Sequence record: NC_073065.1
Direction: 5' to 3' (one strand)
From: Escherichia phage vB_EcoS_Zar3M
DNA: 45,901 nt
In this document: positions 1 through 45,901 of the stretch, in pieces
Numbering within the stretch: position 1 is the stretch's first letter
Layout of the letters: every line of letters starts with the position of its first letter
Position numbers and translations under genes: made by a program
The notes under the pieces: generated by a model
Told to the model about the DNA's origin: nothing
What the model saw: the letters and a program-made list of their open reading frames with translations, nothing else
Database searches by the model: none

Positions 1-101
1 CAGCAGATAGCGATCAACTTTTTCATGCGCGTGATTAATATTGGTTGCATTCGGCCTGGCACCCTGCTATTTTGGTTGCACACCAACATGAGGACTGAAC
101 A

Positions 102-3526: not shown

Positions 3527-4669
3527 ATGCACCCGCAAACTAAAATCACCGACGAGCAATTGATCGCCGAGTTGCAATCCGGCNCNNCCNCGAAANANAT
3601 TGCGAANAANTANGGTNTTTCCCNCCNAAATGTCTACATGCNAAAANCCCNCCTGTCGAANAAAGGTNTTGGTCNCGGNAANGANGCCGTAANCCGNAAG
3701 CGNGTTGCNGNNGGNTTNGGNGTTAAGNGTGTCNCCNCCCTGGNGNGNGGAAANGGNGAAGAGGTCATGTNGNGGGTTATCACTGAGCAGGACAAGGAGC
3801 GCCAGCTTGAGGCAATGCGCGCCGTTGTCGAGGGTATGAACAGCGAAATCAAACCGGCAGCACCCGTAAGCGCCCCGCCGGTCCCGATCCATGCGCTCGA
3901 CCTACTCAACCTGTACACCGTGTCCGACTTCCACCTGGGCATGTTGGCCTGGGGCGAGGAGACTGGCGAAGACTGGGATATGGCGATTGCCGAAGACCTG
4001 TTCTACCGCTGGTTTGTCGAAGCCTTCGCACGCGCACCGGACGCAGGCACTGCCGTAATTAATATCCTCGGTGATATGGCCCACTTTGATAGCCTCGATG
4101 CCGTCACTCCCGCCAGCGGTCACGTACTGGACGCGGATACCCGCTACCAGAAACTGGTCCGATACATGATTCGCATGGTGCGCAACGTGGTAGACCTGGC
4201 GCTGCAGAAACACCACAAAGTCAAACTGCTAATCGTCCAGGGGAATCATGACGAGTCGGGCATGATTTGGCTGGCTGAAATGTTCCATACTCTGTACGAG
4301 AACGAGCCACGCGTCGATGTGGATACGTCCCCGGACGTATACAAAATGGTGCAGCACGGCAAGACCACGCTGTTCTTCCACCACGGGCACAAAGCGCGCT
4401 TCGATGCCATCGAAACCGTCATGATTTCAAAATTCAGACAGGCTTTCGGGTCCAGCGAGTACAGCTACGCGCATGTAGGCCACTTGCACCACCAGAAGAT
4501 TGTAGAATCCCGCAACATGATTGTTGAACAACACCGGACCCTCGCAGCGAAAGACGCATATGCCAGCCGCGGCGGTTGGATGTCCGGTCGTAGTGCCAAC
4601 GTAATCACCTATAGCGCCAACTACGGCGAAGTAGCGCGCCTGACCATTAGCCCGGAAATGTTGAAATGA
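3527..4669 (+). CDS. metallophosphoesterase (calcineurin-like) with N-terminal HTH-like extension
   Basis: Calcineurin-type motif series DFHLG, GDMAH, QGNHDE, HHGH, GHLHH; N-terminal ~60 aa (ITDEQLIAELQSG...) looks like a helix-turn-helix; n-masked patch 3586-3775. Confidence 0.7.
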   Translation: MHPQTKITDEQLIAELQSGXXXKXIAXXXGXSXXNVYMXKXXLSXKGXGXXXXAVXXKXVXXXXXVKXVXXLXXGXXEEVMXXVITEQDKERQLEAMRAVVEGMNSEIKPAAPVSAPPVPIHALDLLNLYTVSDFHLGMLAWGEETGEDWDMAIAEDLFYRWFVEAFARAPDAGTAVINILGDMAHFDSLDAVTPASGHVLDADTRYQKLVRYMIRMVRNVVDLALQKHHKVKLLIVQGNHDESGMIWLAEMFHTLYENEPRVDVDTSPDVYKMVQHGKTTLFFHHGHKARFDAIETVMISKFRQAFGSSEYSYAHVGHLHHQKIVESRNMIVEQHRTLAAKDAYASRGGWMSGRSANVITYSANYGEVARLTISPEMLK

Positions 4670-4923: not shown

Positions 4924-4993
4924 TCCCCTTAGATGGCAGGGCCGTCTCCTATGTTGCCGATGGTCGGCGCATATGCACAAAAGGGCTTATATC

Positions 4994-5545
4994 ATGGCAG
5001 AAATCAAAGTTAAGGGCCGTCGCGCTAAACTGGACGGACGAGTAGCAGTTACCCCGCGCCGTAAACCAGGCGAGCAAACAGAACATACCAATCTCGGGCC
5101 GGAGATCGAATACGGCAAGCGCCGCAGAGGTGGCAAATGTGGACGCCCTACCGACTACCGTTCCGTGTATTGTGACCAACTTCGACGCTATTTCGCCGAT
5201 GCCGTAGCCTGGCAAGTTAACTACTCCGACAAGGGTGCTGCGCAAGTAATTCCCCGCAACATGATGCCTACCTTTGGTCGCTTCGCCGCAAAGATTGGCG
5301 TAGGCGTCGCATGCCTTTATCGCTGGGCGCGCGCACATGAGGAGTTCGCCGAGGCAATGGCTGACGCTATGGAGCTACAGAAAACCTTCCTGATGGAAGC
5401 TGGCGGCGTGACCATCGCGGCGGGCTTCGCTACCTTCCTGCTTAAAGCCAACCACGGCGTCCGGGACGATGTACCGCTGGATGACGACGAAGATGATAAC
5501 GGCGACGTCGTTGTGGAACCTACCGGCAAAGGTCAGGGTGATTAA
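4994..5545 (+). CDS. terminase small subunit (putative)
   Basis: Directly upstream of and overlapping terminase large subunit (TAATG); basic N-terminus, HTH-like segment RFAAKIGVGVACLYRWARAHEEF, acidic C-terminal tail. Confidence 0.55.
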   Translation: MAEIKVKGRRAKLDGRVAVTPRRKPGEQTEHTNLGPEIEYGKRRRGGKCGRPTDYRSVYCDQLRRYFADAVAWQVNYSDKGAAQVIPRNMMPTFGRFAAKIGVGVACLYRWARAHEEFAEAMADAMELQKTFLMEAGGVTIAAGFATFLLKANHGVRDDVPLDDDEDDNGDVVVEPTGKGQGD

Positions 5546-11212: not shown

Positions 11213-11300
11213 TTGTTTTTCCTTCATGTCTCTGTTGGTGTGCAACCAATATAGTGCAACCAATACGCGGATTGCAAGCGAATTTTGCGATTATTTTTAT
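11213..11300 (-). promoter_or_regulatory. promoter-like element with tandem ATTGGTTGCAC motifs and conserved 40-bp box
   Basis: On - strand reads CTTGCAA-N8-ATTGGTTGCAC-TATATT-ATTGGTTGCACACC; shares ATAGTGCAACCAAT and TGCAAG(C/T)GAATTTTGC with 30281-30320. Confidence 0.4.
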
Positions 11301-11367
11301 CGCTGATAATATTAGAAGCGTGAAGTCGAGCGGGTGGCCTGCTCTGCCACAATCCCAGGGGGATAGC

Positions 11368-12072
11368 ATGAAACTTACTAAAGCAGAATATGACGCGTTG
11401 CCGGAAGGTATGAAGGCGCTTTTTGTTGCCGATGGCGACGGGTATAAATCAACGTTCATGACCGCAGAAGAAGTACAGGCGGAAATCAAGGGTCTGAAAG
11501 ACAACAACGCTAAGCTGGTGAGCGAGAAGAAAGCANAAGCNGAACCCCNCCCNNAAGGGGNGNGCCTNGNNAAANANAAANAGGAAGCCNCCNCNCNCAA
11601 AAACGGNGACCTCGAAGCGATCGATAAGTCCTGGAAGGATAAGTTTGCGAAACACGAAGCAGATACATCGGGAAAAATCGAAGCCTACCGCAAGCAGATC
11701 CACGACCTAACCATCGGCAGCGCTGCCAAAGACCTGGCATCGAAGCTATTCGGTAAGAATGCGGGAATAATGCAACGTCACGTTATGGATCGCCTCACTC
11801 TGGAGGACGGCGAAGACGGCAGCTTGAAAGTGCGTGTCTTGCAGGATGGCAAACCGTCCGCGCTGACTATGGAAGAGCTTGAAAAAGAGTTCCGTAATAA
11901 CGCCGATTTTGCATCCGTTCTGGCTGGCACGCCAGCCGGTGGCGCGCCTAGCAAACCGACGCAGGTTGTCGAAGATGTGAAGTCGAAAATCACTATGGGC
12001 CATAGCTTCGGTATCACTGACCTTACGAAACAGGCGGGGGATATCATCGCGAAGATGGGCGACGACGAGTAA
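11368..12072 (+). CDS. scaffolding protein (putative)
   Basis: ATG at 11368 with GGGGGA RBS; charged, helical, low-complexity protein immediately upstream of major capsid gene. Confidence 0.55.
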   Translation: MKLTKAEYDALPEGMKALFVADGDGYKSTFMTAEEVQAEIKGLKDNNAKLVSEKKAXXEPXXXGXXXXKXKXEAXXXKNXDLEAIDKSWKDKFAKHEADTSGKIEAYRKQIHDLTIGSAAKDLASKLFGKNAGIMQRHVMDRLTLEDGEDGSLKVRVLQDGKPSALTMEELEKEFRNNADFASVLAGTPAGGAPSKPTQVVEDVKSKITMGHSFGITDLTKQAGDIIAKMGDDE

Positions 12073-15373: not shown

Positions 15374-16099
15374 ATGGGTTATCAACTTCCTAACGGGTCC
15401 AGCGTCCAGATTGGGTCCGTACTGGGCAGCGGCATCGCTGTTACGGCAGCTACCAACGCCGCCGCGTCTATCTCTGACCTTACGAAAGGTTGCGTTATCA
15501 CCTGCGCGGCGTCTCATGGCCTGAAAGTTGGCGACGTGGTAATGTTCACTAAAACNCCGTGGGNCCGNGCGCTGAACCNCGCGTTCNTNGNGGGNAAAGN
15601 GGCTACCAACNACGTTNCGCTGGNGCGCTTCGACACCTCGGACGNGACCAAGTATCCTACTGGNGCGTTTGGGGNNGGCNCTTCGGGNGAAGTGGTGAAG
15701 GTGTCGAGCTTTATCGACTTCCCTTTCATTACTAACGTTGCCGTATCCGGTGGTGATCAGCAGACGACCACCTTCCAGCCGTTACAGGTGAACACCGCAA
15801 TCAGTCTGAACACCACGAAAAACCCGTTTGTTCAGACTTACACCTTCNCCCNCGACGAANAANACCCNATCCGCCCAANCCTGGAANACCNGGACGGCAC
15901 ACANAAAACCNCTGTGATTAAGTTCNCNAACCCGGCNGCGGNAAGNGGCAAAGGNGAGATCCGTATTTACCCGGNGAAGGTATCTTTCCAGAAGATTCCG
16001 TCCGCTGAAGTAAACAACGTGGAAACGGTACAAGCCACCCTGACCATGCAGTCTGATATGGTTATCTACCGTAAGGATCTGGTCGAGGCATTGTCTTGA
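15374..16099 (+). CDS. major tail (tube) protein
   Basis: 241-aa Ser/Thr/Val-rich beta-type protein, strong RBS, followed by terminator and G/GT chaperone genes. Confidence 0.7.
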   Translation: MGYQLPNGSSVQIGSVLGSGIAVTAATNAAASISDLTKGCVITCAASHGLKVGDVVMFTKXPWXXALNXAFXXXKXATNXVXLXRFDTSDXTKYPTXAFGXGXSXEVVKVSSFIDFPFITNVAVSGGDQQTTTFQPLQVNTAISLNTTKNPFVQTYTFXXDEXXXIRPXLEXXDGTXKTXVIKFXNPXAXXGKXEIRIYPXKVSFQKIPSAEVNNVETVQATLTMQSDMVIYRKDLVEALS

Positions 16100-16129
16100 T
16101 TTGGTCGCTTAAGTAGCGAGTGATAATAT

Positions 16130-16154
16130 GGGGCCAGCACGGCCCCTTTTTATT
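16130..16154 (+). terminator. intrinsic terminator after major tail gene
   Basis: GGGGCC-AGCAC-GGCCCC followed by TTTTTATT. Confidence 0.6.
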
Positions 16155-16167
16155 GGAGAATACCACA

Positions 16168-16530
16168 ATGGCTAAAGCACCNCTCTTCACACTTNNCCCN
16201 AANCCAACCTTTAAGCNGCCGNTTGNGANCCCNCNCCCNGGNGAGAANNAACCCGGNAANATNACTTTTACCGNCCGCCACCGCCCGATCGACGAGTTTT
16301 CGCAGACCATGCAGGACACTGAACGAAAGCTATCGGAATATGACGACAATGACCCGGACGGCTTTAACGTTATGGTCGAGGCCATCATGCACGTCGCAGA
16401 AGGCTGGAATCTGCCGGACGAATTTAACGCGGAGAACGTCCGCCGCCTGGTGGTCAACTATCCACGCGCGTTCGGTGTGTTCCACACGNCGTACTATCTC
16501 GAACTGANGGGGTTGNGNGAAAAAAATTAA
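16168..16530 (+). CDS. tail assembly chaperone G
   Basis: Position between major tail and tape measure genes; ends in A-rich slippery run GAAAAAAATTAA (16519-16530). Confidence 0.6.
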   Translation: MAKAXLFTLXXXPTFKXPXXXXXXXEXXPXXXTFTXRHRPIDEFSQTMQDTERKLSEYDDNDPDGFNVMVEAIMHVAEGWNLPDEFNAENVRRLVVNYPRAFGVFHTXYYLELXGLXEKN

Positions 16531-16844
16531 TTGNGGNGGNGCGACNCTTTTNTGGCCCNCCNCCNCCCNCCNAANATTTAGCCNCAAGTTTNTGGGGNGN
16601 GGCCCCCGAAGATGTTTGTCCNCCTGTTGCACTATGGCCCGACAACGCGAAGATAGTCGCAGTCTTCACAGATTGCTCCACGCAATGGCGCACCGGATTT
16701 GGTGGCGCATACGGCATCGACTACGGCATGCTGGAGTGGTTATTTAAGATGCACGGTATCGAAAACGAGCAGCGCGCGTTTAAAGATATCAAGCTGATGG
16801 AACGAATCGCGCTTGATGAGATGGCGCAGCAGAACCCAGCATAG
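16168..16844 (+). CDS. tail assembly chaperone GT (predicted -1 frameshift fusion product)
   Basis: Slippery A_AAA_AAT at 16521-16527; the -1 frame reads ...EDVCPPVALWPDNAKIVAVFTDCSTQWRTGFGGAYGIDYGMLEWLFKMHG... (gpT-like motif) to TAG at 16842-16844; segment is heavily n-masked. Confidence 0.5.
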
Positions 16845-16846
16845 TG

Positions 16847-17160
16847 AAGNGGGACGTCTCCCTTTTTCCCGCCCTNCAAAACTNCATACCTNCTCAATTC
16901 CNCTGCATAAACNCAAAACGGGNCAGGNGGGNCNNCCCNCTTTNTCCCNCCCCNCAAATGCGCATACCTATGCAGTTTTAATGCATAAAGTAAGCGGGAC
17001 AGAAAGCGGGACAGAAAANNGGGGGGAAAAAGNGGGANAGCACCCCGTCCCCGCCAGTGCTGCCGCGGTTTTCAGCCGATCGGGACAGGCGGGACAACCC
17101 CCAGTNTTTCANACTAGACGGGGGTCAACGGCCCCCCTCGTNTGAGACTGAANAAGGTTT
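16847..17160. repeat. iteron-rich non-coding element, copy A (GCGGGACA octamers plus conserved stem-loop)
   Basis: At least 5 direct GCGGGACA-type boxes (16994, 17006, 17032 masked, 17080 variant, 17089), inverted CGTCCCCGC, stem-loop AGACGGGGG...CCCCCCTCGT flanked by CAGTCT/AGACTG; about 35 bp nearly identical to 45620-45655. Confidence 0.6.
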
Positions 17161-17218
17161 GTTTTAAAATCGCTGATACAATATCCATCGGCAACTGCAT
17201 AAAAAAGGGGACTGCATA

Positions 17219-19861
17219 ATGGCAGATCAAGCGGCAGGCATCACGCTGAAGGCTGATGTTGCACAAATCAGAACGGCAAATACTGTGCTGGACTCCTTCG
17301 CACAGAAATCCGAGAACACAGAAAACAAGGTTAAGAAATTAAACGACACCCTCGGCAAATCCAAAAAGGTGACGAGTGACGCCGCGGGCGGAATGGAGAA
17401 GCTCGCGACTGAATCGCAGCGCGCAGCCGATGGNANGACAAAACAGGNGCGNCTTGCCAACAGGTTAGGCATGTCGACCAAAAACCTGGGCTTTGCCTCG
17501 CGTAACGCCGCATTCCAGTTACAGGATATCGCAGTTACGCTTGAGATGGGGATGCCTGTTCACCGCGTCATGCTTCAGCAGTTACCGCAGCTAACTGGGG
17601 CGTTCGGCGGACTGGGTAACACGCTGCGTTTTGTTGCGGGCTTCCTCGGCCCAGTAGGGGTCGGCCTTGCCGCCGTAACGGCAACGTTAGGCGTGGGCGT
17701 GGCAATTACGTCCCGCGCGGAGAACCAGATCGCCNCGCTTAACAAGACGCTGGCACTTTCCGGTAACATTTCCGGCCTGACGGCAAACCAGATCCTGGTG
17801 CTATCTGAGAACGCCGNGCGCNNGGGNGGGNNGTTCCGCAANANGNGNGACACAANCCNGGCGNNGGNGGNGGNGGGTGTGAAAGNGGGNGGNGACTTCG
17901 GCGCACTGGNGAAAGTGGTGAATGACTTTGCGAAGGTGTCCAGCCAGCCGATCGAGGATGTGGTCGCGGCGGTGGCGAAGCTGTCAACCGACCCGGTAGG
18001 CGGCTTGCGAGCATTGGCTGATAAGTATCACGTCGTAAACGAAGCGCAGATCCAGCAGGTGCAGTCGCTTGTGGATATGGGTCGCGAGACAGACGCGGTT
18101 GCGTTGGCTAACAAAACCGCCGCAGCGTCGTTTACGACTATGACCAACGATATTAAGTCCAACATGGGTACGCTTGAGCGTTCGATGAACGTAGTCACAT
18201 CGGCAGCGAAATCCATGTGGGATGCCATCCTGGATGTTGGACGCGCGCAGTCCTCGAATGAGTCCGAGATGAAAGCGCGTGAGTCATTGCAGCGACTGAC
18301 CACGGCTTACTATGCCGAGATGAAAGCGGTAAACGCTGCCGGTGGGGTGATGACCGAAGCGCAGAAAGCGCGTATTAACATGCTTTACAGCGAACTGGTC
18401 GCCCAGGAGAAGGTGGTGGCGTCGCTCACCCTGCGCAACCGTGCCGAGCGGGACAACNCCCGCCCCNGGGAANAAGNNNNAAAGGNGAANGAANAGGCAA
18501 ACCNCACCGCCCGCNNCCNCGCCGCGTTTGNGAAGGAGTACGCAACCAACGCGAAGCGGCGAGCCGACGAGATCGCCCGCCTCAATTTGCTGAATAAGCG
18601 CGGTGTTATTAACGAGAAAGAGCTTGCCGAGGCGGTGAAGCAGGTAAACGAGCGTTACAAAGACCCCGCCCCGAAGAAGGCCGCCGCTGTTCGAGTCGAT
18701 GCCGGGCTGAAAATGCTGGAAGTCGCGCGAAGCGAATTAGCCCAGCTTCGTGAGTCTGGAAAGCAGATCGAAGCCAACTCTTCGACGCAGACCCGCACGC
18801 AACGCGCGCAAGCGGCCCTTAACAAGCTGATTGCCGACAACGAGCAGTTAATCGCTGCGAGCAAAGAAAGGGCGCTGACGGCAGCAGAGAAGCAGCAAAT
18901 GGTCGGGTTCGGAGGCGTTAAATCTGTACGCGAGCAGATCGTCGAAGAAGCCAAATTGCTGGACGCGAAAGAGAAGCAGGTCAAGGCGCACGCGCAGATC
19001 GACGCCTTCGTTAAGAACCAGAACGCCGAGCTAAAAGCCACCGCGGCGGGCTATGCGCTTTCCACTCGCGAAGCGGCTAACCTGCGCGAAGAATTGCAGC
19101 TAATTGACCGCCTTAAGCGGGTGGGCGCTAGTGATACCGATATTGATCTGGCGGTGTCTAAGCTGCGCGAAGTGCAGGAAGCACAGACCGGTGCTAACGC
19201 CTCGCTATGGGATGGATTAAGCCGCGGGCTTAAGGATAGCGTTGATGAAATGGGTAACGGCTATACGCAGATGGCGTCACTAACAAAATTCACGTTCGGC
19301 GCTATGCAGGACACGATGAACGAGTTTTTCGAGACTGGCAAGCTGAACGCAAAGGATATGGTTAAGTCCATCCTGAGCGAATTAATCAAGCTGGCTACAT
19401 CGCAGGCGTTCAAGTCCATCGTTAGCGCTTTNGGNGGNGNNGGNGGAAAAAANGGNTTNTTNGGNGNTNTNTTNNCCNGCCNGACTAANAANGNGGNNGG
19501 NGGNGNGNNCGNNGGGGGNAATCTCGCGGCCTNTTNGGGGNAAGTGGTAAGCCNNCCTNCCTTTTTNNGTTNCGGNGTCCNGGNGTTCGCTAAGGGTGCT
19601 GGATTGATGGGGGAGGCTGGACCCGAGGCCATCATGCCGCTGAAGCGCGGGCCAGACGGTAAACTGGGAGTTGCCGCTGCCGGTGGGGTCGGTGGGATGA
19701 TTGTAACGACCAACGTTAATATGGGTACCGGTAAGACGGATACCAGTGTGAGCGGACCGGACCCACGCACCGCGCAGGCGTTCGGAAAGCAAATCACCGA
19801 GTCGGTCAAGGCCGAGATTGTGAAGGCGACGAAACCGGGTGGTGTACTTTACAAACNATGA
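17219..19861 (+). CDS. tape measure protein
   Basis: 880-aa helical Ala/Gln/Lys-rich protein with Gly-rich hydrophobic C-terminal region; downstream of G/GT. Confidence 0.85.
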   Translation: MADQAAGITLKADVAQIRTANTVLDSFAQKSENTENKVKKLNDTLGKSKKVTSDAAGGMEKLATESQRAADXXTKQXXLANRLGMSTKNLGFASRNAAFQLQDIAVTLEMGMPVHRVMLQQLPQLTGAFGGLGNTLRFVAGFLGPVGVGLAAVTATLGVGVAITSRAENQIAXLNKTLALSGNISGLTANQILVLSENAXRXXGXFRXXXDTXXAXXXXGVKXXXDFGALXKVVNDFAKVSSQPIEDVVAAVAKLSTDPVGGLRALADKYHVVNEAQIQQVQSLVDMGRETDAVALANKTAAASFTTMTNDIKSNMGTLERSMNVVTSAAKSMWDAILDVGRAQSSNESEMKARESLQRLTTAYYAEMKAVNAAGGVMTEAQKARINMLYSELVAQEKVVASLTLRNRAERDNXRPXEXXXKXXEXANXTARXXAAFXKEYATNAKRRADEIARLNLLNKRGVINEKELAEAVKQVNERYKDPAPKKAAAVRVDAGLKMLEVARSELAQLRESGKQIEANSSTQTRTQRAQAALNKLIADNEQLIAASKERALTAAEKQQMVGFGGVKSVREQIVEEAKLLDAKEKQVKAHAQIDAFVKNQNAELKATAAGYALSTREAANLREELQLIDRLKRVGASDTDIDLAVSKLREVQEAQTGANASLWDGLSRGLKDSVDEMGNGYTQMASLTKFTFGAMQDTMNEFFETGKLNAKDMVKSILSELIKLATSQAFKSIVSAXXXXXGKXXXXXXXXXXXTXXXXXXXXXGXNLAAXXGXVVSXPXFXXXXVXXFAKGAGLMGEAGPEAIMPLKRGPDGKLGVAAAGGVGGMIVTTNVNMGTGKTDTSVSGPDPRTAQAFGKQITESVKAEIVKATKPGGVLYKX

Positions 19862-31990: not shown

Positions 31991-32303
31991 AATAAAAGTT
32001 CGGGTCGCGTGCGACGTCTACCAGGTAAAGGTTACTTATGCGGTTGCCGTAGTGCCCTGGAGTGCGCTGGCGGCACACAACGGCGAAGCCGGGAGGGATT
32101 GTATTGCCCGTCTCAATAATCCACGCGACGCGTGCGCCAGACAGCGTCTTTCCGTTGCATTCGATACGTGTTCCGCCATCGGCAGTATTGATGTTGCCAA
32201 TCTTGCAGCCGGTGGACTTCAGACGGATGACGCCGGTTTTGCTGTCGTAGGTGAATAGCTGGTTAGTCATTGCGACCGAAAAGTCGATGGCTTCGAATGT
32301 CAT
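31986..32303 (-). CDS. HNH endonuclease-like protein (intact copy)
   Basis: Pattern LFTYDSKTG...GKTLSGARVAWIIETG..IPPG...NRISNLYLV resembles HNH_3-type phage endonucleases, though the canonical DH dyad is not obvious; ATGA overlap with methyltransferase. Confidence 0.45.
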   Translation of the reverse strand: MTFEAIDFSVAMTNQLFTYDSKTGVIRLKSTGCKIGNINTADGGTRIECNGKTLSGARVAWIIETGNTIPPGFAVVCRQRTPGHYGNRISNLYLVDVARDPNFYS

Positions 32304-32995
32304 TTTAAATTTTCCTCGTTAACCGCTATCGCGAAGCCGCGCGGAGTGAGCGACCGGATTAATTTTGTGCGGGCTGATTTGCCTCCGAGGCGACTATACT
32401 GCTTCGAGTACCCTTTTTCAACGAAAACAGGTCTCTTCTCTGGCATACGGAAGCCGTTGCCGGTCCATAAGCAGGTCAGCTTCGGATATGAATCGCGAGC
32501 GTTGATGTATTCCGGGAAGAGCGGGTGTACGTCATCCTCCGGCAGATATCCCCCATACTCCCACGGGTCGAATGAGTGATCCGGCTTGCGCCACTGGGTG
32601 GAAAGCACACTGCGCGGATTCTCAATCATATATGGCACTTCAAAGAAGTCACCTAAGTAAGCGGCAATCTTCGCGGNGCGCACCGCCTTAAGCTGAAAGG
32701 CAGGGTCTTTAGCACGCTTGCGAGGGAAAGCGGGTGCACCGCTCACTGCCAGATCCGTACACGGCGGGAATGCATAAATGATATCCGGCGTGCCGAAATC
32801 ACCATTCATCGCGCGGTCCACGAAGTCCAGATCGATAAACTCATTACGATATCGGATACCGCGCCCATAAATCCGGTAGTCCAGGTACGAGCCGTGATCG
32901 GCTTCGGAGTAGTTGAAGCAATAACACTTATGCCCCATCTCGGCAGCACGCTCAATCATCAAGCCGCTGCCGTCGAATAATGACCAGATAATCAT
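32300..32995 (-). CDS. DNA (cytosine-5)-methyltransferase-like protein, copy 1
   Basis: Motif I-like SLFDGSG, PC motif AFPPCTDLAVSG, ENV-like MIENP; 231 aa (short for a C5-MTase). Confidence 0.6.
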   Translation of the reverse strand: MIIWSLFDGSGLMIERAAEMGHKCYCFNYSEADHGSYLDYRIYGRGIRYRNEFIDLDFVDRAMNGDFGTPDIIYAFPPCTDLAVSGAPAFPRKRAKDPAFQLKAVRXAKIAAYLGDFFEVPYMIENPRSVLSTQWRKPDHSFDPWEYGGYLPEDDVHPLFPEYINARDSYPKLTCLWTGNGFRMPEKRPVFVEKGYSKQYSRLGGKSARTKLIRSLTPRGFAIAVNEENLK

Positions 32996-33264
32996 ATGCG
33001 CGCCTTTTTAGCTTTCATGTATTCCATCAAGTCGTCCTGGATATCTCGCTTACTGTCTCGACGCTCTGCGACCAGTTCATCCAGTGTGCCGCGCGCCTGG
33101 ATAATGTAGACGAATACCGGACGAGGGTGTCCGGCTTGCATCTGGCGAACTGGCCCGATACGTTCAACTGCCCGTCTCAATAATCCACGCGACGCGTGCG
33201 CCAGACAGCGTCTTTCCGTTGCATTCGATACGTGTTCCGCCATCGGCAGTATTGATGTTGCCAA
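32992..33264 (-). pseudogene. helicase 3' fragment (duplication-derived ORF)
   Basis: C-terminal 57 aa identical to helicase C-terminus (ERIGPVRQMQAGHPRPVFVYIIQARG...KAKKARI); N-terminal part is out-of-frame junction sequence. Confidence 0.5.
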
Positions 33265-33367
33265 TCTTGCAGCCGGTGGACTTCAGACGGATGACGCCGG
33301 TTTTGCTGTCGTAGGTGAATAGCTGGTTAGTCATTGCGACCGAAAAGTCGATGGCTTCGAATGTCAT
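33164..33367 (-). pseudogene. truncated HNH endonuclease-like gene (duplication-derived)
   Basis: First 66 aa identical to 31986..32303, truncated at the duplication junction and lacking the NRISNL region. Confidence 0.5.
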
Positions 33368-34059
33368 TTTAAATTTTCCTCGTTAACCGCTATCGCGAAG
33401 CCGCGCGGAGTGAGCGACCGGATTAATTTTGTGCGGGCTGATTTGCCTCCGAGGCGACTATACTGCTTCGAGTACCCTTTTTCAACGAAAACAGGTCTCT
33501 TCTCTGGCATACGGAAGCCGTTGCCGGTCCATAAGCAGGTCAGCTTCGGATATGAATCGCGAGCGTTGATGTATTCCGGGAAGAGCGGGTGTACGTCATC
33601 CTCCGGCAGATATCCCCCATACTCCCACGGGTCGAATGAGTGATCCGGCTTGCGCCACTGGGTGGAAAGCACACTGCGCGGATTCTCAATCATATATGGC
33701 ACTTCAAAGAAGTCACCTAAGTAAGCGGCAATCTTCGCGGNGCGCACCGCCTTAAGCTGAAAGGCAGGGTCTTTAGCACGCTTGCGAGGGAAAGCGGGTG
33801 CACCGCTCACTGCCAGATCCGTACACGGCGGGAATGCATAAATGATATCCGGCGTGCCGAAATCACCATTCATCGCGCGGTCCACGAAGTCCAGATCGAT
33901 AAACTCATTACGATATCGGATACCGCGCCCATAAATCCGGTAGTCCAGGTACGAGCCGTGATCGGCTTCGGAGTAGTTGAAGCAATAACACTTATGCCCC
34001 ATCTCGGCAGCACGCTCAATCATCAAGCCGCTGCCGTCGAATAATGACCAGATAATCAT
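33364..34059 (-). CDS. DNA (cytosine-5)-methyltransferase-like protein, copy 2
   Basis: Identical to 32300..32995; ATGA overlap with full-length helicase stop. Confidence 0.6.
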   Translation of the reverse strand: MIIWSLFDGSGLMIERAAEMGHKCYCFNYSEADHGSYLDYRIYGRGIRYRNEFIDLDFVDRAMNGDFGTPDIIYAFPPCTDLAVSGAPAFPRKRAKDPAFQLKAVRXAKIAAYLGDFFEVPYMIENPRSVLSTQWRKPDHSFDPWEYGGYLPEDDVHPLFPEYINARDSYPKLTCLWTGNGFRMPEKRPVFVEKGYSKQYSRLGGKSARTKLIRSLTPRGFAIAVNEENLK

Positions 34060-35480
34060 ATGCGCGCCTTTTTAGCTTTCATGTATTCCATCAAGTCGTC
34101 CTGGATATCTCGCTTACTGTCTCGACGCTCTGCGACCAGTTCATCCAGTGTGCCGCGCGCCTGGATAATGTAGACGAATACCGGACGAGGGTGTCCGGCT
34201 TGCATCTGGCGAACTGGCCCGATACGTTCAACGATCTGCGAAAAGTGCTCAAAGTTCCAGGTATCGGNGAAGATTGCCNGGNGNTGTCCTCCGTCCTGCA
34301 AGTTAAGGCCGTGGCCTGCCGATGCCGGGTGTGCAAACATGATGGGGATCTCGCCTCTGTTCCACGCTTCCATATCCTTATTGCCCTGCTTACCTTTACC
34401 CAACGCAACGCCGTGCGGAAATTTCTTCTTAAGACGTGCCAGGTCATGCTTGTACTGATACGCAACGAGCAACGGCGCACCGTTCAACTCCTCCACGATA
34501 CTTTCCAGCGCGTCCAGCTTCGCGTCGTGAATCTTCACCCACTCGTCGGTCCGTTCGCCGTCTTCGTCCACCTTATACACGGCACCGGACGCAAGCTGAA
34601 GGCACTTGATGGTCTTCGACGCAGCGTTCGCCGCCTCTACGGTCCCGCTTTCCAGTTCTGCAAATAGCTCCGCTTCAAACTGATCGTAAATCTTGCGGGC
34701 TTTCTTCGGCAGGTCCACAACAACCGGCGTATAGATTGGCTTGTCGCATCCGAAGTATTCAGCCGCGTCAACGGTTAGTGATACGTCAGACAGGCGTTGT
34801 TGTATTTCTTTCTCGGAGTTCTTTAGCGGAGCGTGCTGCATCGTGAAGCTGCCAGGCTTAACAGGCTTGCTAATGAACCAGCGATCGGTGAATGCCTTAT
34901 AGCTACTGCCGAGGCGTTCGCCACCGTCGACAAACCACGTCTGACCCCATAAGTCTTTCAGCCCGTTTGGTGCTGGTGTGCCTGTAAGGTTAATCCAGCG
35001 CTTGACGTGTTTATGTGCAATCGCTGCCAGTGCGCGGGCGCGCTTGCTCCCCTGCTTGCTACGATAGCCTTTCAGCTTAGTCGATTCATCGGCAACAACG
35101 ACCGTAAAGGGCCACGCATCGCCGTAATATTCGACCAGCCACTCGACCACATCGTAGTTAACACAAACCACGTTAGCGTCGCTATCAAGCGCGGCAATAC
35201 GGTCCTTCTCCGGTCCGGTGCCGTCTACGACCAGCAGGGNTGAGAACCNCCATTTCTCCTGTTCCGGGGGCCATGTACCCGACGCAACACGCAGCGGGGC
35301 CAGCACCAGTACGCGGTCCTCATGATGGGACAGGATGCCAGTCTGGAACATTTTGTTCAGCGCCCACATTGTCGCGCCGGTTTTACCCGACCCCATTGTC
35401 GCCCAGATATTGCATCGCTTATGCTTGAGGATGAACGCGGTAATCAACTTCTGATATTCGCGGCGTCGGAATCGTGCCAT
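34056..35480 (-). CDS. SNF2/DEAD-like superfamily 2 helicase
   Basis: Walker A MGSGKTG, DEAH-like VVVADEST, C-terminal helicase domain; likely start is ATG at 35480 (MARFRRREYQ), not the upstream listed start. Confidence 0.75.
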   Translation of the reverse strand: MARFRRREYQKLITAFILKHKRCNIWATMGSGKTGATMWALNKMFQTGILSHHEDRVLVLAPLRVASGTWPPEQEKWXFSXLLVVDGTGPEKDRIAALDSDANVVCVNYDVVEWLVEYYGDAWPFTVVVADESTKLKGYRSKQGSKRARALAAIAHKHVKRWINLTGTPAPNGLKDLWGQTWFVDGGERLGSSYKAFTDRWFISKPVKPGSFTMQHAPLKNSEKEIQQRLSDVSLTVDAAEYFGCDKPIYTPVVVDLPKKARKIYDQFEAELFAELESGTVEAANAASKTIKCLQLASGAVYKVDEDGERTDEWVKIHDAKLDALESIVEELNGAPLLVAYQYKHDLARLKKKFPHGVALGKGKQGNKDMEAWNRGEIPIMFAHPASAGHGLNLQDGGXXXAIFXDTWNFEHFSQIVERIGPVRQMQAGHPRPVFVYIIQARGTLDELVAERRDSKRDIQDDLMEYMKAKKARI

Positions 35481-38787: not shown

Positions 38788-39573
38788 TTAACGGCGGCGA
38801 CGTTTACGTGGTGCTTCGTCTTCGTCGTCTTCGTCCTCATCTTCGTCATCGCGGGNCTTGCGGCGTTTGCGAGGTTTTTCATCTTCCTCATCGTNGTCGT
38901 CATCGCGGGGCTTGGATTTCTTGGACTTGCGCGGCTTGTCATCCTCATCATCGTCATCACGACGTTTTGACTTCTTAGCCTTGCGCGGTGCTTCGTCTTC
39001 GTCGTCGTTGTCCAGGTCTTCGTCGGAACATGAAGACCCGCCACCTCCGAAGGCTTCGCCGTCTTCACGGAATCGCAGACCCAGCAAGCCCGCCCCGAGT
39101 CCCTTGCCGTTGGTATTGTTCCACGCCCAAATATCAAGTGACACGTTGCAATAACAACCGGAGTAGATCTCCTGGCCTTCGATCTCGTCGCCTTCTACGG
39201 TCAGACCTTGTTCAGTCTGCTTCTCGCCGAGTGACGTTTGAATGATAGGCTGTTTGAACGATTTGGCGTTGATATACAACATGCCTTCGAATTCTTCGGT
39301 AACTTCATCGCGCTCGTCGCCGTCGCGAACTGCACATTCCTTAGAATCCTGGGCGTAGTGGCGGTCCATCCACTTATCGGCATTCTTCTCAGATTTCAGC
39401 TTGTCGGTGAGCACTGCACGCGCTGCCGCTTCCACTTTGTCCACCTGCGGATCTTCTTTATCAAGAAGAATCACGGCACGGTATGCCGGTTTTTGTCCAT
39501 CCTGTTTAGGGGTATCACGTTCCCAAATTTTCAGGAAGCATACGCGCACATTTTTCAGGTTGNCTTTANCCAT
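38788..39573 (-). CDS. DUF2815-type phage SSB-like protein with charged repeat C-terminal tail
   Basis: N-terminal region resembles DUF2815 proteins found beside DUF2800 and PolA in phage replication modules; C-terminal ~90 aa alternate acidic runs with KPRKSKKSK-type basic blocks. Confidence 0.55.
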   Translation of the reverse strand: MXKXNLKNVRVCFLKIWERDTPKQDGQKPAYRAVILLDKEDPQVDKVEAAARAVLTDKLKSEKNADKWMDRHYAQDSKECAVRDGDERDEVTEEFEGMLYINAKSFKQPIIQTSLGEKQTEQGLTVEGDEIEGQEIYSGCYCNVSLDIWAWNNTNGKGLGAGLLGLRFREDGEAFGGGGSSCSDEDLDNDDEDEAPRKAKKSKRRDDDDEDDKPRKSKKSKPRDDDXDEEDEKPRKRRKXRDDEDEDEDDEDEAPRKRRRR

Positions 39574-39906: not shown

Positions 39907-41329
39907 TGCTTAAGTCCTCGTCAGTAGCTACAGACCACGCAGGGCGCGGGTCGTCGATGGGTGCTAATACCGGTTTAGCGGGTGCGCGCGTGATTTTATC
40001 ACACAACTTTGCCCACACTTTCGGCTTCTCGTCCTTCAATACCTTCTCGGCATCAGTAGGGCTGAGTAATGTTTCTTTGTACATCACGTCGCGCTTGATC
40101 CGGGCCTTCGTGAAGATCTCAATCACTTCGCTCTCGTCCGCCCACTTGCGGATTCCTTCCTTACCGGCAACCATCTTGAGGCCCAGCGATTCNCCATCAC
40201 CCNCCATTACGGCCTTNAACNCCGCGGNCNCGANAGCCTTGNTNTGNTGGCGCNTTGNGNCAANACCTTCANAANCCTTNCGCNGTTCCNCCNCNCCCAN
40301 NGCNCNGGGGGGGNCTTTTTTTTTNCCCCNCTCCCCNCGNGGNNCCCCTTTGGGGGNTNNGGGGGCCATNTTGNGGNCGTGATTGGCGCATTCTTCCTCT
40401 GTCGAAATACTCACGTCGTCGCCCAGGTCTTCGTCTGTTGCCGTTGGTGGGGCCATAGTGTCGATTGCAGCCTTAGCGCGGGCGCTACACTGATCCGCAA
40501 ATCTGCACCATTGACACGCATCAACGCTCGGTCGGAAGTCGGCACGGGTGAGTCCCTTTTTGCCGCGGTCGTACGCTTCCAGGGCGGCGATAGCACGCTT
40601 GGACGCAAACTTCGCGAATATCTCCAGGGCTTCTACCGAAATATCCCACTCCGACGCCCCGCCGCAATACGGCTGGAAGATAACCAGGCGCACGGTCGTA
40701 ATGTCGTACATAGTTTTCAGCTTGCGCAGCAGGCCCAGCGCATACAACATAAGCTGTTTGTTTTCTTTCGCCTCGACCTTATGCCGCCCCGTCTTCAGGT
40801 CGCCAACAATCAGCATGTACGTGCCGTCGGTCTTCTTCATGACCATGACCATATCCGCAGTGCCGAACGTCTTAACCCGGTTGCCGTCGATCTCGAAGCC
40901 AGAGTGTAGGACGCGGGTAAGATCGGCGCGCATCTCAAGCTGAACAAACTCCGCCACTTCGAGGAGCGGTCGCCAGTGGTCGATGTATGCGTCGCACTGT
41001 TTCACCATGTCGTCGTTGACCAGCACGCCGCCTTTCGGTGCTTTCGGGTGCGCCTTCACCGGCCCCTTACCTTCGTTCTCGACGTAACACCCTTTGTACG
41101 TCTTCGCGGTTATCAGCTTTTCACCGGCGATAATGCGGTTGAGCACGACTTCAGATACAGTGTGCATACTCGTACCGTTAATCGCCGCTTGCCCGGATTC
41201 GTTCGGGATACCTTGTTCTACCACCAGGGCGGCTGGGCAACCCATCCATTTTTTAGCACCGGATGGGCCGAGTAATGAATGCTCCGTGTTGCTACCGGAT
41301 TGCGTTTTACGTTTTGGTTTAATCGCCAT
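39899..41329 (-). CDS. DUF2800-type PD-(D/E)XK nuclease (Cas4-like, Cys cluster)
   Basis: N-terminal LLGPSGAKKWMGCPAA and C-terminal CQWCRFADQC Cys cluster, as in Cas4/RecB-like phage exonucleases. Confidence 0.65.
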   Translation of the reverse strand: MAIKPKRKTQSGSNTEHSLLGPSGAKKWMGCPAALVVEQGIPNESGQAAINGTSMHTVSEVVLNRIIAGEKLITAKTYKGCYVENEGKGPVKAHPKAPKGGVLVNDDMVKQCDAYIDHWRPLLEVAEFVQLEMRADLTRVLHSGFEIDGNRVKTFGTADMVMVMKKTDGTYMLIVGDLKTGRHKVEAKENKQLMLYALGLLRKLKTMYDITTVRLVIFQPYCGGASEWDISVEALEIFAKFASKRAIAALEAYDRGKKGLTRADFRPSVDACQWCRFADQCSARAKAAIDTMAPPTATDEDLGDDVSISTEEECANHXXXMAPXXPKGXXXGEXXKKKXPPXXXXXXEXXKXXEGXXXXRXXXKAXXXAXXKAVMXGDXESLGLKMVAGKEGIRKWADESEVIEIFTKARIKRDVMYKETLLSPTDAEKVLKDEKPKVWAKLCDKITRAPAKPVLAPIDDPRPAWSVATDEDLSNE

Positions 41330-42463: not shown

Positions 42464-42699
42464 GGTATATCTCCGATTGGTTAAGTTTAGGTGTCGGCAG
42501 TTAACTTCGTCGGTGGCCTTAACATATTGCCAGGTTACGCGTTCTCCCGTTCGGGTAGTGGACCTGGTTATATAATCACGGTTGGGAATCCTGACACTTC
42601 GATCCGGCCCCTGCGTTGCCCCTCTCCAGTTTGCGTCCTGCATCCTGTCGACGGAGTGAATGATAGATTGGTTGGAGGAGGGGTGTCAACAACTAATTT

Positions 42700-42866: not shown

Positions 42867-43196
42867 ATGAATATCAAAGAAGCAATTGAAGTGTTATCTA
42901 ATGCAATCCGCGGCGAAGCGGGTAAATCCTGGTATTACACAAATGCGGTGGATACTCTGTTATTTGAAGTCGTCCGATTACGCAGTGCTGAGAAGGAGTT
43001 ACGCGCGAAGCTGGAACTACTCAATGGTACGGCAGCCAGCAAGCTGCAAAAGCANAATGAAGAAATGGAAGAATACAAAAAGCAGGTTATCCGTTTGCGC
43101 GACGAAGGGAAATCATGGGCGATGATTGCAGAGCTAACCGGAATTAATCAGAGCACCGTGCGATCCTGGGTACGCAATAATAAAACCTCTAAGTAA
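42867..43196 (+). CDS. helix-turn-helix DNA-binding regulator (109 aa)
   Basis: C-terminal HTH-like GKSWAMIAELTGINQSTVRSWVRNN; N-terminal coiled-coil-like region; first gene of + operon. Confidence 0.5.
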   Translation: MNIKEAIEVLSNAIRGEAGKSWYYTNAVDTLLFEVVRLRSAEKELRAKLELLNGTAASKLQKXNEEMEEYKKQVIRLRDEGKSWAMIAELTGINQSTVRSWVRNNKTSK

Positions 43197-43206
43197 GGNA
43201 ACGGCA

Positions 43207-45471
43207 ATGNGCTTAATTAAATTCGCAGTAANACGACCCGCTAAAAAAGGNGAAAAAGCCAGGGCGGAAAANTTCCAGATGACTACCGATGAGTTTTTCG
43301 AATTTATCAACGATGCGAAAGAAATCTCCTCGGTGCATATCAACAAGACGGAAGATAAAGCGGAGTATGCGCGCCGCAAGCGTAAGGCCGATGGCATTGT
43401 GGCTTATACCAGTGATGGGCTGCGCCGCAAGACCAGTGCCGTGGATCGCTCGATCCTGTTCTTCGATATGAACCGTACCGACACCCGCACCTTGCGCCGC
43501 TGCCGTAAGGCGTTCATCGACGCGGGTCTTGAACACGTATTTCACACCACCACCGGCGACCGCCACCCGCTGAAGGGCGGCACGCGTTGCGCCCGTTTCC
43601 TGGTGCTAACGGATAAGCCCGTACCGGCGGAAGACCTGGGCCGCGTACAGTATGCACTATTACACCAACTCGGCCTGTCAGATGTGGACTTCGATGATTG
43701 CACGAAAGACACAAACCGCCTTATGTACCTGCCTCACCNGCAATCGGTTGTTAAGTGTCACTACGGCAAACGTGCCCGCGTCCGTCGTCTGATTCGCCTG
43801 GCGGATAAGCNGGGNGNGGAAAAAGAGGAAGTACGCCGCGAATTAACCCAGGGCGATGACGGCGTGGNGGACGGCATTNTGGNTTGGTGNTTCCAGGNAG
43901 GATTCGAACCGCTGTCGTCCGGTCGTGGTTATGAAGTGCCGTGCCCGAACGAACACCTGCACAGTGGTGAAGGGTCCACCGCTATCATGGTCAAGGATGG
44001 CGAGATCCGTTTCAAGTGTATGCACACTGGCAACGAGTGTTGCTCGGAACTGAACAGACACCAGCACCTGGCGCTACGTCTTATCGGGATACCGGACCAC
44101 CTGAACGTCGAACCACACAACATGTCTCGTAAGCAAATCGCCGCCATTCTCCCCGGACTGGACGACGAGGAAGTGGAATCGTGCTATGCGCATATAGTTG
44201 ATGCGGTCGGTGACGGCGACGAGTACGGCGTATGTACCGACGCGGACCTGGATAACGAACCGGTCGCACTGTTCAGTAAGCACGACCCGATCATCGAGGG
44301 GTTGATTAACTTCAAATCGACCTGGTATATGGCTGGCGAATCGAACATCGGTAAATCGTTCTACGTGCTGGGCCAAATGGGTGCGGTTGCCNCGGGGATT
44401 CCGTTCGGNGGTGCGAAGGTCGTCCAGTCTCATTGCTTCTATTTCGACGCGGAAGGTGGTGAAGCCTCCAACCAGCGTAAGGAAGCATTGCAGATCAAAT
44501 ATGAGCACGACCTGGACAAGCTGCACATTATCGATCTGCAATCACGCGGCTGGGATATCACCAGCAAATCCGGCTTGCGTGAAGTTATCAGCTTCATCAA
44601 CCGCACCGCTAACGGCGAACCGGTTGGCCTGGTGGCCTTCGACTCCCTCAACCAGACTGTTGCGTTGCGGTCCGCCGATGCTAAACCGTTCGACGAGAAC
44701 AACGCCAGCGATATGGGTGAAGTGGTCAAAGCGCTGAAGGCCATTGCGGAAAAGACCGGCGGCAGTGCTGGCGTCATCCACCACCCGGCGAAGGGCGCAA
44801 ACGGCAGCAGATCCCCCCGCGGGTCCGGCGCGCTGCATGGTGCTGTTGATTCTGCGTTCTTCCTTGAGCAACCGGACGACAACCAGCCGGGCCAGTTGAA
44901 CCTGTATCACGAAAAGGCACGTAACGGCATCAAGCAAGCGCCGCGCGGCTTCGTCCTGCTCAAGTGCAAGGTTAAGGNGGATCTCCGCAAGNCCGAAGCG
45001 TTCGAAGCCCNCCAGTCCNCCNGCACCGGGCCGGACTTTGGCGACGTCGTTGCCGGTTGGGACGTCAAGCCAATTGCCTCCACGCCACGCGACGAGACTC
45101 TTTACCTCGTNCCGGTCGCCCTGGCNCCGTTCNCTNTTGAGNNGGNGAAGGCCGNGGGNAAANNAGCCGTTAANNAANAAAANNCCNCNGGACCNCGCAA
45201 NNAGAAANANAAAGTGCTTTATGCGGCACTGGAAAAACTGATGGAAGATAACCCGGACCATACCGGATTCAGTAAATCGGCAATTGTCCGCCAGGCTGGG
45301 CTTGCGAAAGGGGGCACATCGACGAAGGCAATAGACGATATGGTGGAGCGCGGCGTGCTAGGTTTTTATACAGATCCGCACACTGGGGCCATCTATGGGT
45401 CGTCGAATATCGTCATCAAAACAAATATACCCATCACGCTTTCGGCGACCGATGATGATTTAAAAGATTAA
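43207..45471 (+). CDS. primase-helicase (primase-like N-terminal domain, zinc-binding region, P-loop RecA/DnaB-like ATPase)
   Basis: Cys/His cluster CPNEHLH...CMHTGNEC; Walker A GESNIGKS and Walker B-like LVAFDS; N-terminal domain has phage/plasmid primase-like features; several n-masked patches. Confidence 0.7.
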   Translation: MXLIKFAVXRPAKKXEKARAEXFQMTTDEFFEFINDAKEISSVHINKTEDKAEYARRKRKADGIVAYTSDGLRRKTSAVDRSILFFDMNRTDTRTLRRCRKAFIDAGLEHVFHTTTGDRHPLKGGTRCARFLVLTDKPVPAEDLGRVQYALLHQLGLSDVDFDDCTKDTNRLMYLPHXQSVVKCHYGKRARVRRLIRLADKXXXEKEEVRRELTQGDDGVXDGIXXWXFQXGFEPLSSGRGYEVPCPNEHLHSGEGSTAIMVKDGEIRFKCMHTGNECCSELNRHQHLALRLIGIPDHLNVEPHNMSRKQIAAILPGLDDEEVESCYAHIVDAVGDGDEYGVCTDADLDNEPVALFSKHDPIIEGLINFKSTWYMAGESNIGKSFYVLGQMGAVAXGIPFXGAKVVQSHCFYFDAEGGEASNQRKEALQIKYEHDLDKLHIIDLQSRGWDITSKSGLREVISFINRTANGEPVGLVAFDSLNQTVALRSADAKPFDENNASDMGEVVKALKAIAEKTGGSAGVIHHPAKGANGSRSPRGSGALHGAVDSAFFLEQPDDNQPGQLNLYHEKARNGIKQAPRGFVLLKCKVKXDLRKXEAFEAXQSXXTGPDFGDVVAGWDVKPIASTPRDETLYLXPVALXPFXXEXXKAXXKXAVXXXXXXGXRXXKXKVLYAALEKLMEDNPDHTGFSKSAIVRQAGLAKGGTSTKAIDDMVERGVLGFYTDPHTGAIYGSSNIVIKTNIPITLSATDDDLKD

Positions 45472-45546
45472 TTTGTGCGCGCATTGGTTGCCGATTTGGG
45501 AATTCCGATATGATTAAAAGATTAATTTGTGCGCGCATTGGTTGCC
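45457..45546. repeat. two ~35-bp direct repeats each containing ATTGGTTGCC
   Basis: TGATT(T)AAAAGATTAATTTGTGCGCGCATTGGTTGCC at 45457-45490 (overlapping primase stop) and 45510-45546; third ATTGGTTGCC at 45572-45581. Confidence 0.6.
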
Positions 45547-45619
45547 ATTTTTAGTGTTTTTATCTGGTCGTATTGGTTGCCGTGTAGTGTGTATATAATG
45601 AATAGTTATGCAATAAAAC

Positions 45620-45790
45620 TGCATAAAGTGAGCGGGACAGAAAGCGGGACAAACAAGGGGCGGGACAAAGCGGGACAGCGCCCCCGTCCCGCCCCGGATG
45701 GCGCGGCCTAGAGAGGAGCGGGACAGCGGGACAAAACCCCAGTCTTTCAGACTAGACGGGGGTCGATGGCCCCCCTCGTCTGAGACTGAA
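45620..45790. repeat. iteron-rich non-coding element, copy B (GCGGGACA octamers plus conserved stem-loop)
   Basis: Six direct GCGGGACA boxes (45632, 45644, 45660, 45670, 45718, 45726) and inverted CGTCCCGC (45685-45692); stem-loop CAGTCTTTCAGACTAGACGGGGGTCGATGGCCCCCCTCGTCTGAGACTG; homologous to 16980-17156. Confidence 0.65.
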
Positions 45791-45901
45791 TAAAATCCGG
45801 GGATTGCAAATTACACGGNAGCATNACGCGAAGTGCGGTCGCGGATGAACTAGGCAACCAATGCAAACCGCATTACGCTGAGTGAAAAATGCGGTTTGCA
45901 G

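Follow-up and report, generated by a model that had tools for sequence, protein, structure and literature searches.

Two distant non-coding blocks in Dhillonvirus genomes share a conserved iteron and hairpin module: a candidate replication origin with a distal partner

The genome of Escherichia phage vB_EcoS_Zar3M (NC_073065.1), whose whole 45,901-nucleotide stretch we refer to as the window, contains two non-coding blocks that share a module of short direct and inverted repeats (iterons) ending in a long imperfect hairpin. Region A separates the genes for the tail assembly chaperone and the tape measure protein, and region B follows the gene for a primase-helicase; both names are taken from the annotation of a relative, Sodalis phage SO-1. 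The feature is real, strongly conserved and non-coding. An earlier note on this DNA had described a 374-bp non-coding gap between the chaperone and tape measure genes, and the reading frames bear this out, with a chaperone stop codon at 16842-16844 and a tape measure start at 17219. The features of region A and of the genes that border it are as follows.

16120-16530, plus strand: open reading frame (ORF) of tail assembly chaperone G (Pfam Phage_TAC_4, E 1.4e-14)
16120..16844, plus strand: chaperone G with its T extension frame, assigned from the T-frame translation and from synteny with SO-1 gp15/gp16; the T frame is the upstream border of region A
16845..17218, plus strand: region A, the entire non-coding gap, homologous to the repeat_region 'region A' of SO-1 (11214-11597)
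16849..16873: unit 1 of region A, a degenerate, partly n-masked palindromic iteron set (GnGGGAC GTCTCCC TTTTT CCCGCC)
16918..16949: unit 2 of region A (ACGGGnCA GnGGGnC, then inverted (GT)CCC(G) CTTT nTCCCn)
16978..17153, plus strand: shared module, copy A, delimited by alignment to copy B
16994..17013, plus strand: iteron pair 1, GCGGGACA at 16994 and 17006, spacing 12
17019..17055: iteron pair 2, degenerate GGGGGGAA and then GnGGGAnA at 17032-17039
17047-17055: inverted iteron GTCCCCGCC beside pair 2
17080..17096, plus strand: iteron pair 3, TCGGGACA at 17080 and GCGGGACA at 17089
17102..17150, plus strand: long imperfect hairpin, CAGTnTTTCAnACTAGACGGGGGTC-AAC-GGCCCCCCTCGTnTGAGACTG
17174..17182, plus strand: putative extended -10-like element TGATACAAT, read from the sequence
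17219..19861, plus strand: gene for the tape measure protein, bordering region A downstream, from annotations of relatives

Copy A is heavily n-masked in the window, and iteron counts were also taken from unmasked relatives. There, region A consists of two ~79-bp tandem units followed by the shared module, and each unit comprises a palindromic four-site set and then TGCATA boxes. Unit 1 reads GCGGGAC-AAG-CGGGAC/GTCCCG-TTTT-GTCCCGC in these relatives, and its palindrome is annotated as a rho-independent terminator in phage HK578. Unit 2 is a tandem copy of unit 1, ~79 bp apart (78% identity between the two in relative L007), and phage jat carries an annotated repeat_region at its equivalent. 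The TGATACAAT element lies 37 bp upstream of the tape-measure start and is specific to copy A; CTGATACAAT, at this tape-measure-proximal position, is invariant in 9 genomes. In TH11 (L008, a record flagged UNVERIFIED) region A is itself tandemly duplicated, at 15561-15734 and 16076-16249, with a period of 515 bp.

At the second locus the non-coding stretch begins right after the primase-helicase stop codon and runs across the window end as far as the first ORF at 102.

45472..45901, plus strand: region B, corresponding to the repeat_region 'region B' of SO-1 (40178-40657)
45484..45580, plus strand: three ATTGGTTGCC boxes (45484, 45538, 45573) upstream of module B
45600..45612, plus strand: GAATAGTTATGCA box, also present in the corresponding regions of Cornellvirus and of a JGI metagenome contig
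45616..45790, plus strand: shared module, copy B, with six direct GCGGGACA (45632, 45644, 45660, 45670, 45718, 45726) and one inverted copy (45685-45692)
45740..45788, plus strand: long imperfect hairpin, copy B, 269 bp past the primase-helicase stop codon

The ATTGGTTGCC boxes are part of a separate, mostly intergenic genome-wide motif, to which we return below. The box (G)TGAATAGTTATGCA, at window 45600-45612, is kept in region B across lineages with differing iterons and occurs twice in Cornellvirus and in metagenome contig L052 (L014 13781-13813; L052 ~3810-3845); it could be a host-factor site. We make no claim for the GAATAGTTATGCA box as a DnaA box, because only 7-8 of 9 positions match TTATNCACA and a mismatch falls in the conserved CACA.

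Exact copies of GCGGGACA number 12 in the window against 1.8 expected, a count reached in 0 of 100 shuffles, and nine of the twelve lie in the two blocks (3 in A, 6 in B). With one mismatch allowed there are 51 copies against 47 expected genome-wide. The enrichment that had been proposed thus holds for the exact octamer and vanishes for its one-mismatch variants, so that the octamer signal consists of the two clusters. In unmasked relatives, CGGGAC occurs in region A ~10 times in forward and 3-4 times in reverse orientation; for region B the counts are 6 forward and 1 reverse. The true iteron core is the heptamer CGGGACA, which occurs in pairs spaced 9-12 bp.

Copy A (16982-17155) and copy B (from 45620) share 80.6% identity over 175 bp and have the same orientation, forming direct repeats 28.6 kb apart. 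Their hairpins (17102-17150 and 45740-45788) are identical except for the loop, which is AAC in A and GAT in B. The octamer cluster, the inverted copies, the GC-rich stem-loop and the homologous distant copy differing only in the loop of its hairpin were all described by the earlier note, and all are present. Folded as DNA, the hairpin reaches -13.4 kcal/mol, with a z of -3.3 to -4.0 against shuffles. Neither the iterons nor the hairpin arms CAGTCTTTCAGACTAGAC and CGTCTGAGACTG vary among 20 copies taken from 10 genomes; what varies in the hairpin is its apical G5/C5 stem and its loop. Genomes also differ by insertions and deletions of one base inside the module, which argues against coding, and we therefore regard the module as non-coding.

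The window belongs to the genus Dhillonvirus. A 2-kb query around the feature matched 157 phage records with identities of 80-95%. Almost all are Escherichia phages from this genus, and CEC_Kaz_2018 (93%) comes closest. Gene order is as in SO-1 and HK578: structural and tail genes occupy the plus strand, the replication block the minus strand, and the small helix-turn-helix (HTH) and primase-helicase genes follow on the plus strand. The alignment to related phages that had been suggested proved informative, since the module was found in 157/157 Dhillonvirus records, at 328 places and with at least 2 in each record listed. In IMG/VR, only contigs of 42-45 kb contain the exact hairpin arm, twice in 11/18 and as one exact match in 7/18. 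A metagenomic relative whose primase-helicase is 66% identical retains both iterons and hairpin, with a single change in the hairpin bulge.

The SO-1 RefSeq record (NC_013600) already annotates 'region A' (11214-11597) and 'region B' (40178-40657) as repeat_region features, described as repeats of direct, inverted and palindromic kind that resemble one another. They are the elements seen in the window, at the same two places in another member of its genus, and they appear there as an annotation note only; our literature searches found no paper analysing regions A and B or any Dhillonvirus replication origin. The existence of both blocks is hence already recorded in a database, and their function most likely belongs to a known class. 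What the comparison adds is the apparent co-variation of lineage-specific iterons with the winged-helix tail of the primase-helicase, and a second copy that recurs among late genes.

The same conservation bears on the idea that copy A is functionless in itself, either a remnant of duplication or a selfish repeat. There are only two copies per genome, and the further tandem duplication in TH11 would suit such a repeat. Position and sequence are nevertheless conserved in all 157 records, and a different genus has a copy in the same gap. Between genomes, the A copies are more conserved (87.7% identity) than the B copies (82.0%), and, without selection, recombination would remove direct repeats of 175 bp. 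We consider a functionless remnant the least credible of the explanations discussed here. A weak sign points to concerted evolution between A and B of one genome, which we count in favour of the origin reading given below.

We then compared siphoviruses with primase-helicase homologues at 42-48% identity. Every related lineage examined has a lineage-specific array of short direct and inverted repeats in the non-coding stretch 3' of the primase-helicase gene, and a GC-rich hairpin closes the array in 4/6 lineages.

Cornellvirus FSL SP-031: GGGGAGA, 6 direct and 1 inverted; one array only; hairpin after the gene
JGI metagenome contig L052: AGGGATA; hairpin after the gene
Contigs L051 and L053: TTGCGA-type and GTGCGGAA-type repeats; array recorded
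Klebsiella phage VLCpiS11a: TTGCGAG; two copies; hairpin after the gene
Edwardsiella phage eiAU-183: CGCCCCG; two copies; hairpin in the tail-gene copy

In eiAU-183, a hairpin was not found after the primase-helicase gene. All six hairpins tested across the lineages fold with a z of -3.2 to -4.4. Dhillonvirus and eiAU-183 have the hairpin core GACGGGGG...CCCCTCGTC in common; the core GAGGA..GGGGTG...CCACCCC..TCCTC is present in eiAU-183 and L052, and Cornellvirus has a looser variant, GAGGA..GGGTGGG...CCCCCACC..CCCTC. Genomes of Kagunavirus and Jerseyvirus (L015-L017) were uninformative for this comparison, with only 30-48 bp short repeats and a different gene order.

In three lineages (Dhillonvirus, eiAU-183 and VLCpiS11a), a further direct copy is found among late genes, always oriented with transcription. 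The copy of VLCpiS11a, ~290 bp long with 78% identity, is located between head-morphogenesis and spanin genes. The second site of eiAU-183 is the chaperone/tape-measure gap, there ~1.1 kb long, which has a 52-bp segment in common with the region after the helicase gene (88% identity). Chaperone and tape-measure genes overlap in VLCpiS11a and FSL SP-031, so the gap between them is specific to Dhillonvirus and Eiauvirus.

The transcribed module could also work as RNA, either in cis or in the form of a small RNA; examples would be a hairpin for RNase III processing or for stabilisation, an antiterminator of the put kind, or a sponge for a protein. The plus-strand RNA folds with a z of -2.5 against shuffles, as compared with -1.5 for the minus strand, and the hairpin spans about two helical turns with internal loops, as do the RNase III sites of phage T7. 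Orientation relative to transcription is conserved in all lineages, and the two VLCpiS11a hairpins have stems of different sequence that nevertheless keep their pairing. Within the genus, however, the arms are invariant and hence show no covariation, and the inverted iterons and palindromic four-site units are features of double-stranded DNA. The lineage motifs have no RNA-level feature in common, the GGA triplet being absent from TTGCGAG and CGCCCCG, and no conserved promoter lies directly upstream. An Rfam scan gave no match at the gathering score and, up to an E-value of 10, microRNA-like noise and no family. Taken together, these observations make an RNA element improbable in our view. A CsrA sponge was dropped as an idea because the iterons of two lineages lack the GGA triplet. 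A scan for tRNA and tmRNA gave no match.

Two proteins encoded upstream of region B are candidates for reading the iterons.

42867..43196, plus strand: 109-aa HTH protein, just upstream of the primase-helicase gene (Pfam HTH_23, Sigma70_r4_2)
43207..45471, plus strand: primase-helicase gene, 754 aa (PHROG 3228 'replicative helicase-primase' over all of the protein; Pfam AAA_25)
45205..45468, plus strand: C-terminal winged-helix domain of the primase-helicase, a candidate iteron reader, from the predicted structure

AAA_25 (RepA/DnaB-like) is the only Pfam match of the primase-helicase; Pfam gave no D5_N, superfamily 3 or Toprim match, and there was no sequence match in the PDB. Its family profile weakly matches RepA of RSF1010 (1g8y, E 0.087), and N-terminal DxD and SGDRH motifs hint at a primase of the archaeo-eukaryotic type. 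A winged helix is the predicted fold of the C-terminal 88 residues. No other part of the protein diverges as much, with 24-31% identity between lineages against 45-48% for the whole; the domain is ~30% identical to its VLCpiS11a counterpart and cannot be aligned to that of eiAU-183. A variable winged helix may thereby pair with variable iterons, and a conserved enzyme core with the conserved hairpin core. The 109-aa HTH protein is an alternative candidate reader, and in other lineages it is replaced by unrelated HTH proteins of the Cro/C1 type.

The reading towards which we lean, with some reservation, is an iteron-type replication origin beside its initiator gene, combined with a distal second copy in the manner of P4 ori/crr or SPP1 oriL/oriR. 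From the arrangement of repeats and genes we infer both the likely iteron binder and a start of replication at the blocks. Region B, directly 3' of the primase-helicase gene, would be the origin. Its CGGGACA heptamers, paired about one helical turn apart, would be bound by a phage protein, most likely through the C-terminal winged helix of the primase-helicase or, alternatively, by the 109-aa HTH protein. Several bound subunits could then assemble a helicase ring on the adjoining hairpin-forming sequence; the hairpin would be recognised by the conserved enzyme core, and duplex opening and synthesis of the first primer would take place there. Region A, which holds the same module and two more palindromic iteron units, would be a second binding region, serving as a required cis partner like P4 crr, as a second origin, or as a fork barrier of the kind proposed for SPP1 oriR.

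The earlier note had likened the two clusters to P4 ori/crr, and much of that analogy stands. As in P4, short direct and inverted iterons lie in two separated cis regions. In the phages compared here, one array always follows directly on the primase-helicase gene, the iterons vary with a winged helix that is predicted at the C-terminus of that enzyme, and a distant copy among late genes recurs in three lineages. The crr of P4 is built of tandem repeat units containing iterons, and the distal region is built likewise here. What does not stand is kinship of the enzymes. P4 alpha has a primase, a hexameric helicase and a C-terminal winged helix for DNA binding, all within one polypeptide (PMC2777425). 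By contrast, the helicase here is RepA/DnaB-like (AAA_25) rather than superfamily 3, and homology of the primase-helicase to alpha is unsupported, with neither a D5_N or superfamily 3 match nor a PDB sequence match. Because the enzyme is not homologous, the phage lies outside the P4 family, although its system appears, by analogy, to work like that family's. Further differences are the iteron sequence, the spacing (17 or 28.6 kb here against ~4.5 kb) and the conserved 49-nt hairpin in each module.

SPP1 offers a second comparison. Its oriL lies in the replication module and its oriR in a non-coding segment that interrupts the late structural genes, ~13 kb apart on the circular map, and the origin binder at oriR has been proposed to stall forks and trigger the theta-to-sigma switch (PMC6316719). 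SPP1 is likewise a ~44-kb siphovirus with headful packaging and two origin-like repeat regions, which gp38 binds in SPP1, and the second copy of VLCpiS11a occupies the corresponding place among head genes. Unlike the system described here, SPP1 has a separate origin-binding protein, a loader and a DnaB-type helicase, its oriL lies inside gene 38, and its AT-rich unwinding elements are marked. We saw no gp38 homologue here, though no direct comparison with gp38 was made. In the origin of pRN1, the essential part is a conserved stem-loop; the origin lies immediately downstream of the gene encoding a primase-helicase-winged-helix protein (ORF904), and the authors of that work mention comparable cases in phages (PMC4234260). 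A conserved stem-loop 3' of the primase-helicase gene is found here and in FSL SP-031, L052 and VLCpiS11a; that of pRN1 differs in being 100 nt long, without identified iterons, next to a gene for a superfamily 3 helicase and in single copy.

Several observations weigh against an origin. Scanning the flanks for AT content revealed no strong AT-rich unwinding element beside either block: over 30 bp the maximum is 63-70% against a genome mean of 45%, with no long AT tract. The GC skew profile merely mirrors the coding strand. The winged-helix assignment is a predicted model with generic matches, and co-variation with the iterons fails to single out this domain, because the small HTH protein is also lineage-variable. 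The single array of Cornellvirus indicates that a distal copy is no universal requirement. Finally, both copies sit exactly between co-oriented genes and in the orientation of transcription, and region A starts with a hairpin annotated as a terminator and ends with the conserved extended -10-like element.

These last features are also what a role at the transcript level predicts. The blocks would then punctuate or control transcription, ending the upstream transcript and restarting or regulating the next late genes, and CGGGACA would provide operators or activator sites for a phage regulator such as the 109-aa protein, which resembles sigma region 4. The hairpin at the start of region A is followed by a T-run, the invariant TGATACAAT closes the region just ahead of the tape-measure gene, and around region B are TTGGTTGC boxes, which overlap -35 elements of sigma-70 type. 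The Pfam matches of the HTH protein are Sigma70_r4_2 and HTH_23, CGGGACA resembles a -35 hexamer, and the second copy always lies inside a long late operon. On the other side, consensus scans found neither an intrinsic terminator on the plus strand of either block (AATAAA or AATAAGG follows the long hairpin) nor any promoter or terminator element common to the two copies. A TATAAT upstream of module B is not conserved, and the extended -10-like element is confined to copy A. Moreover, 6-10 sites in tandem pairs and palindromes together with an invariant 49-nt hairpin are more than operators need, and the array lies constantly 3' of the primase-helicase gene, even in the single-copy Cornellvirus. 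A transcriptional role is a less likely explanation that we nonetheless take seriously. These roles could coexist, with copy A perhaps binding the initiator and also punctuating transcription of the tail genes.

Within the origin reading, a more specific and doubtful variant is self-contained initiation of a type not yet described, in which a primase fused to a RepA-like helicase and a winged helix would read the lineage-specific heptamers through that variable winged helix and load itself at a hairpin that its conserved core recognises; the copy in the tail operon would be obligatory. That copy might then be a programmed fork barrier or second origin that times the switch to concatemer synthesis, or might couple replication to expression of the tape-measure and distal tail genes.

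A further alternative, raised early on, was a packaging site, in the form of a pac recognition region bound by the small terminase subunit. The genus packages by a headful mechanism with a preferred pac site of unreported position, its genomes are permuted, and repeated short motifs are typical of pac and cosB sites. Record ends also fall close by: the window and three others (Pandora71, SP1 and vB_EcoS-101114B2) have a common point of linearisation, ~107 bp after hairpin B, and HH3 ends exactly at the hairpin. Record starts are inconsistent, however, with others ~900 bp or ~4.8 kb after the module, and may reflect convention or assembly breaks at repeats. Two direct sites 28.6 kb apart would start two packaging series, and the small terminase gene (4973-5545) lies ~5 kb away. 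Across lineages, the constant neighbour is the primase-helicase gene, and one related lineage holds the helicase-side copy only. The packaging proposal is weakened accordingly, and we regard a pac site as very unlikely; a cos site was rejected in view of headful packaging.

With respect to record ends more generally, eiAU-183 (L050) is linearised inside the chaperone-to-tape-measure gap, and the junction of the window's two ends seems to lack ~3-4 bases (TCA/TCAC) relative to relatives. Such ends could stem from broken assembly at repeats, from a convention that the records have in common, or from physical ends that are preferred. Assembly is likely to break, and recombination to occur, at the two 175-bp direct repeats.

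Of the E. coli siphoviruses isolated for phage therapy and biocontrol, Dhillonviruses rank among the commonest, and the BASEL reference collection includes them. If the modules are an origin and its distal partner, they would provide a defined target for engineering minimal replicons or phagemids. An origin function would also explain why the linkage of chaperone and tape-measure genes, otherwise universal, is broken in Dhillonvirus and Eiauvirus, and would offer a natural series of initiator-iteron specificity swaps for studying origin recognition by winged helices.

Among 8- and 9-mers, the strongest over-representation in the genome is that of (A)TTGGTTGC(A/C) and its complement, with ~18-22 copies. 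In the window the motif occurs on the plus strand at 41, 72, 39646, 45484, 45538 and 45573, and on the minus strand at 605, 3332, 11242, 11256, 18542, 21891, 27287, 30286, 31960, 31977, 35977 and 45854; in SO-1, 15 of its 21 copies are intergenic and often paired. It overlaps sigma-70-like -35 elements, as in TTGCAT-N17-TATTTT at window 45-73 and TTGCAT-N17-TATAGT in eiAU-183. Since Dhillonvirus, Eiauvirus and VLCpiS11a have the motif in common, a conserved role as an early-promoter or operator element, separate from the CGGGACA iterons, is probable.

Another octamer, ACGGCA(A/G)C, is present in SO-1 (L004) in 37 copies on the plus strand against 16 on the minus strand, with ~1 expected per variant, and mostly inside genes. 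It is also among the top k-mers of L007, and every lineage examined has 1-2 copies after the region B hairpin. A polar signal, for instance a primase or recombination site, is one possibility, and an effect of codon usage is another.

Two further repeats lie elsewhere in the window. An exact tandem duplication of 1064 bp (32105-33168 and 33169-34232, 100% identity), which could be real or an assembly artefact, holds a 231-aa ORF (32300-32995 and 33364-34059; at the position of a cytosine methyltransferase in relatives) and its neighbour. The other, for which the stretches 42159-42347 and 38804-39024 were noted, is an internal tandem repeat of ~87 bp (88% identity) inside a 231-aa minus-strand ORF (41948-42643). 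It is accompanied by clusters of the words CGTCATC and CTTCGTC on the plus strand, and suggests a repetitive protein (PHROG 3127) adjoining a divergent early promoter region.

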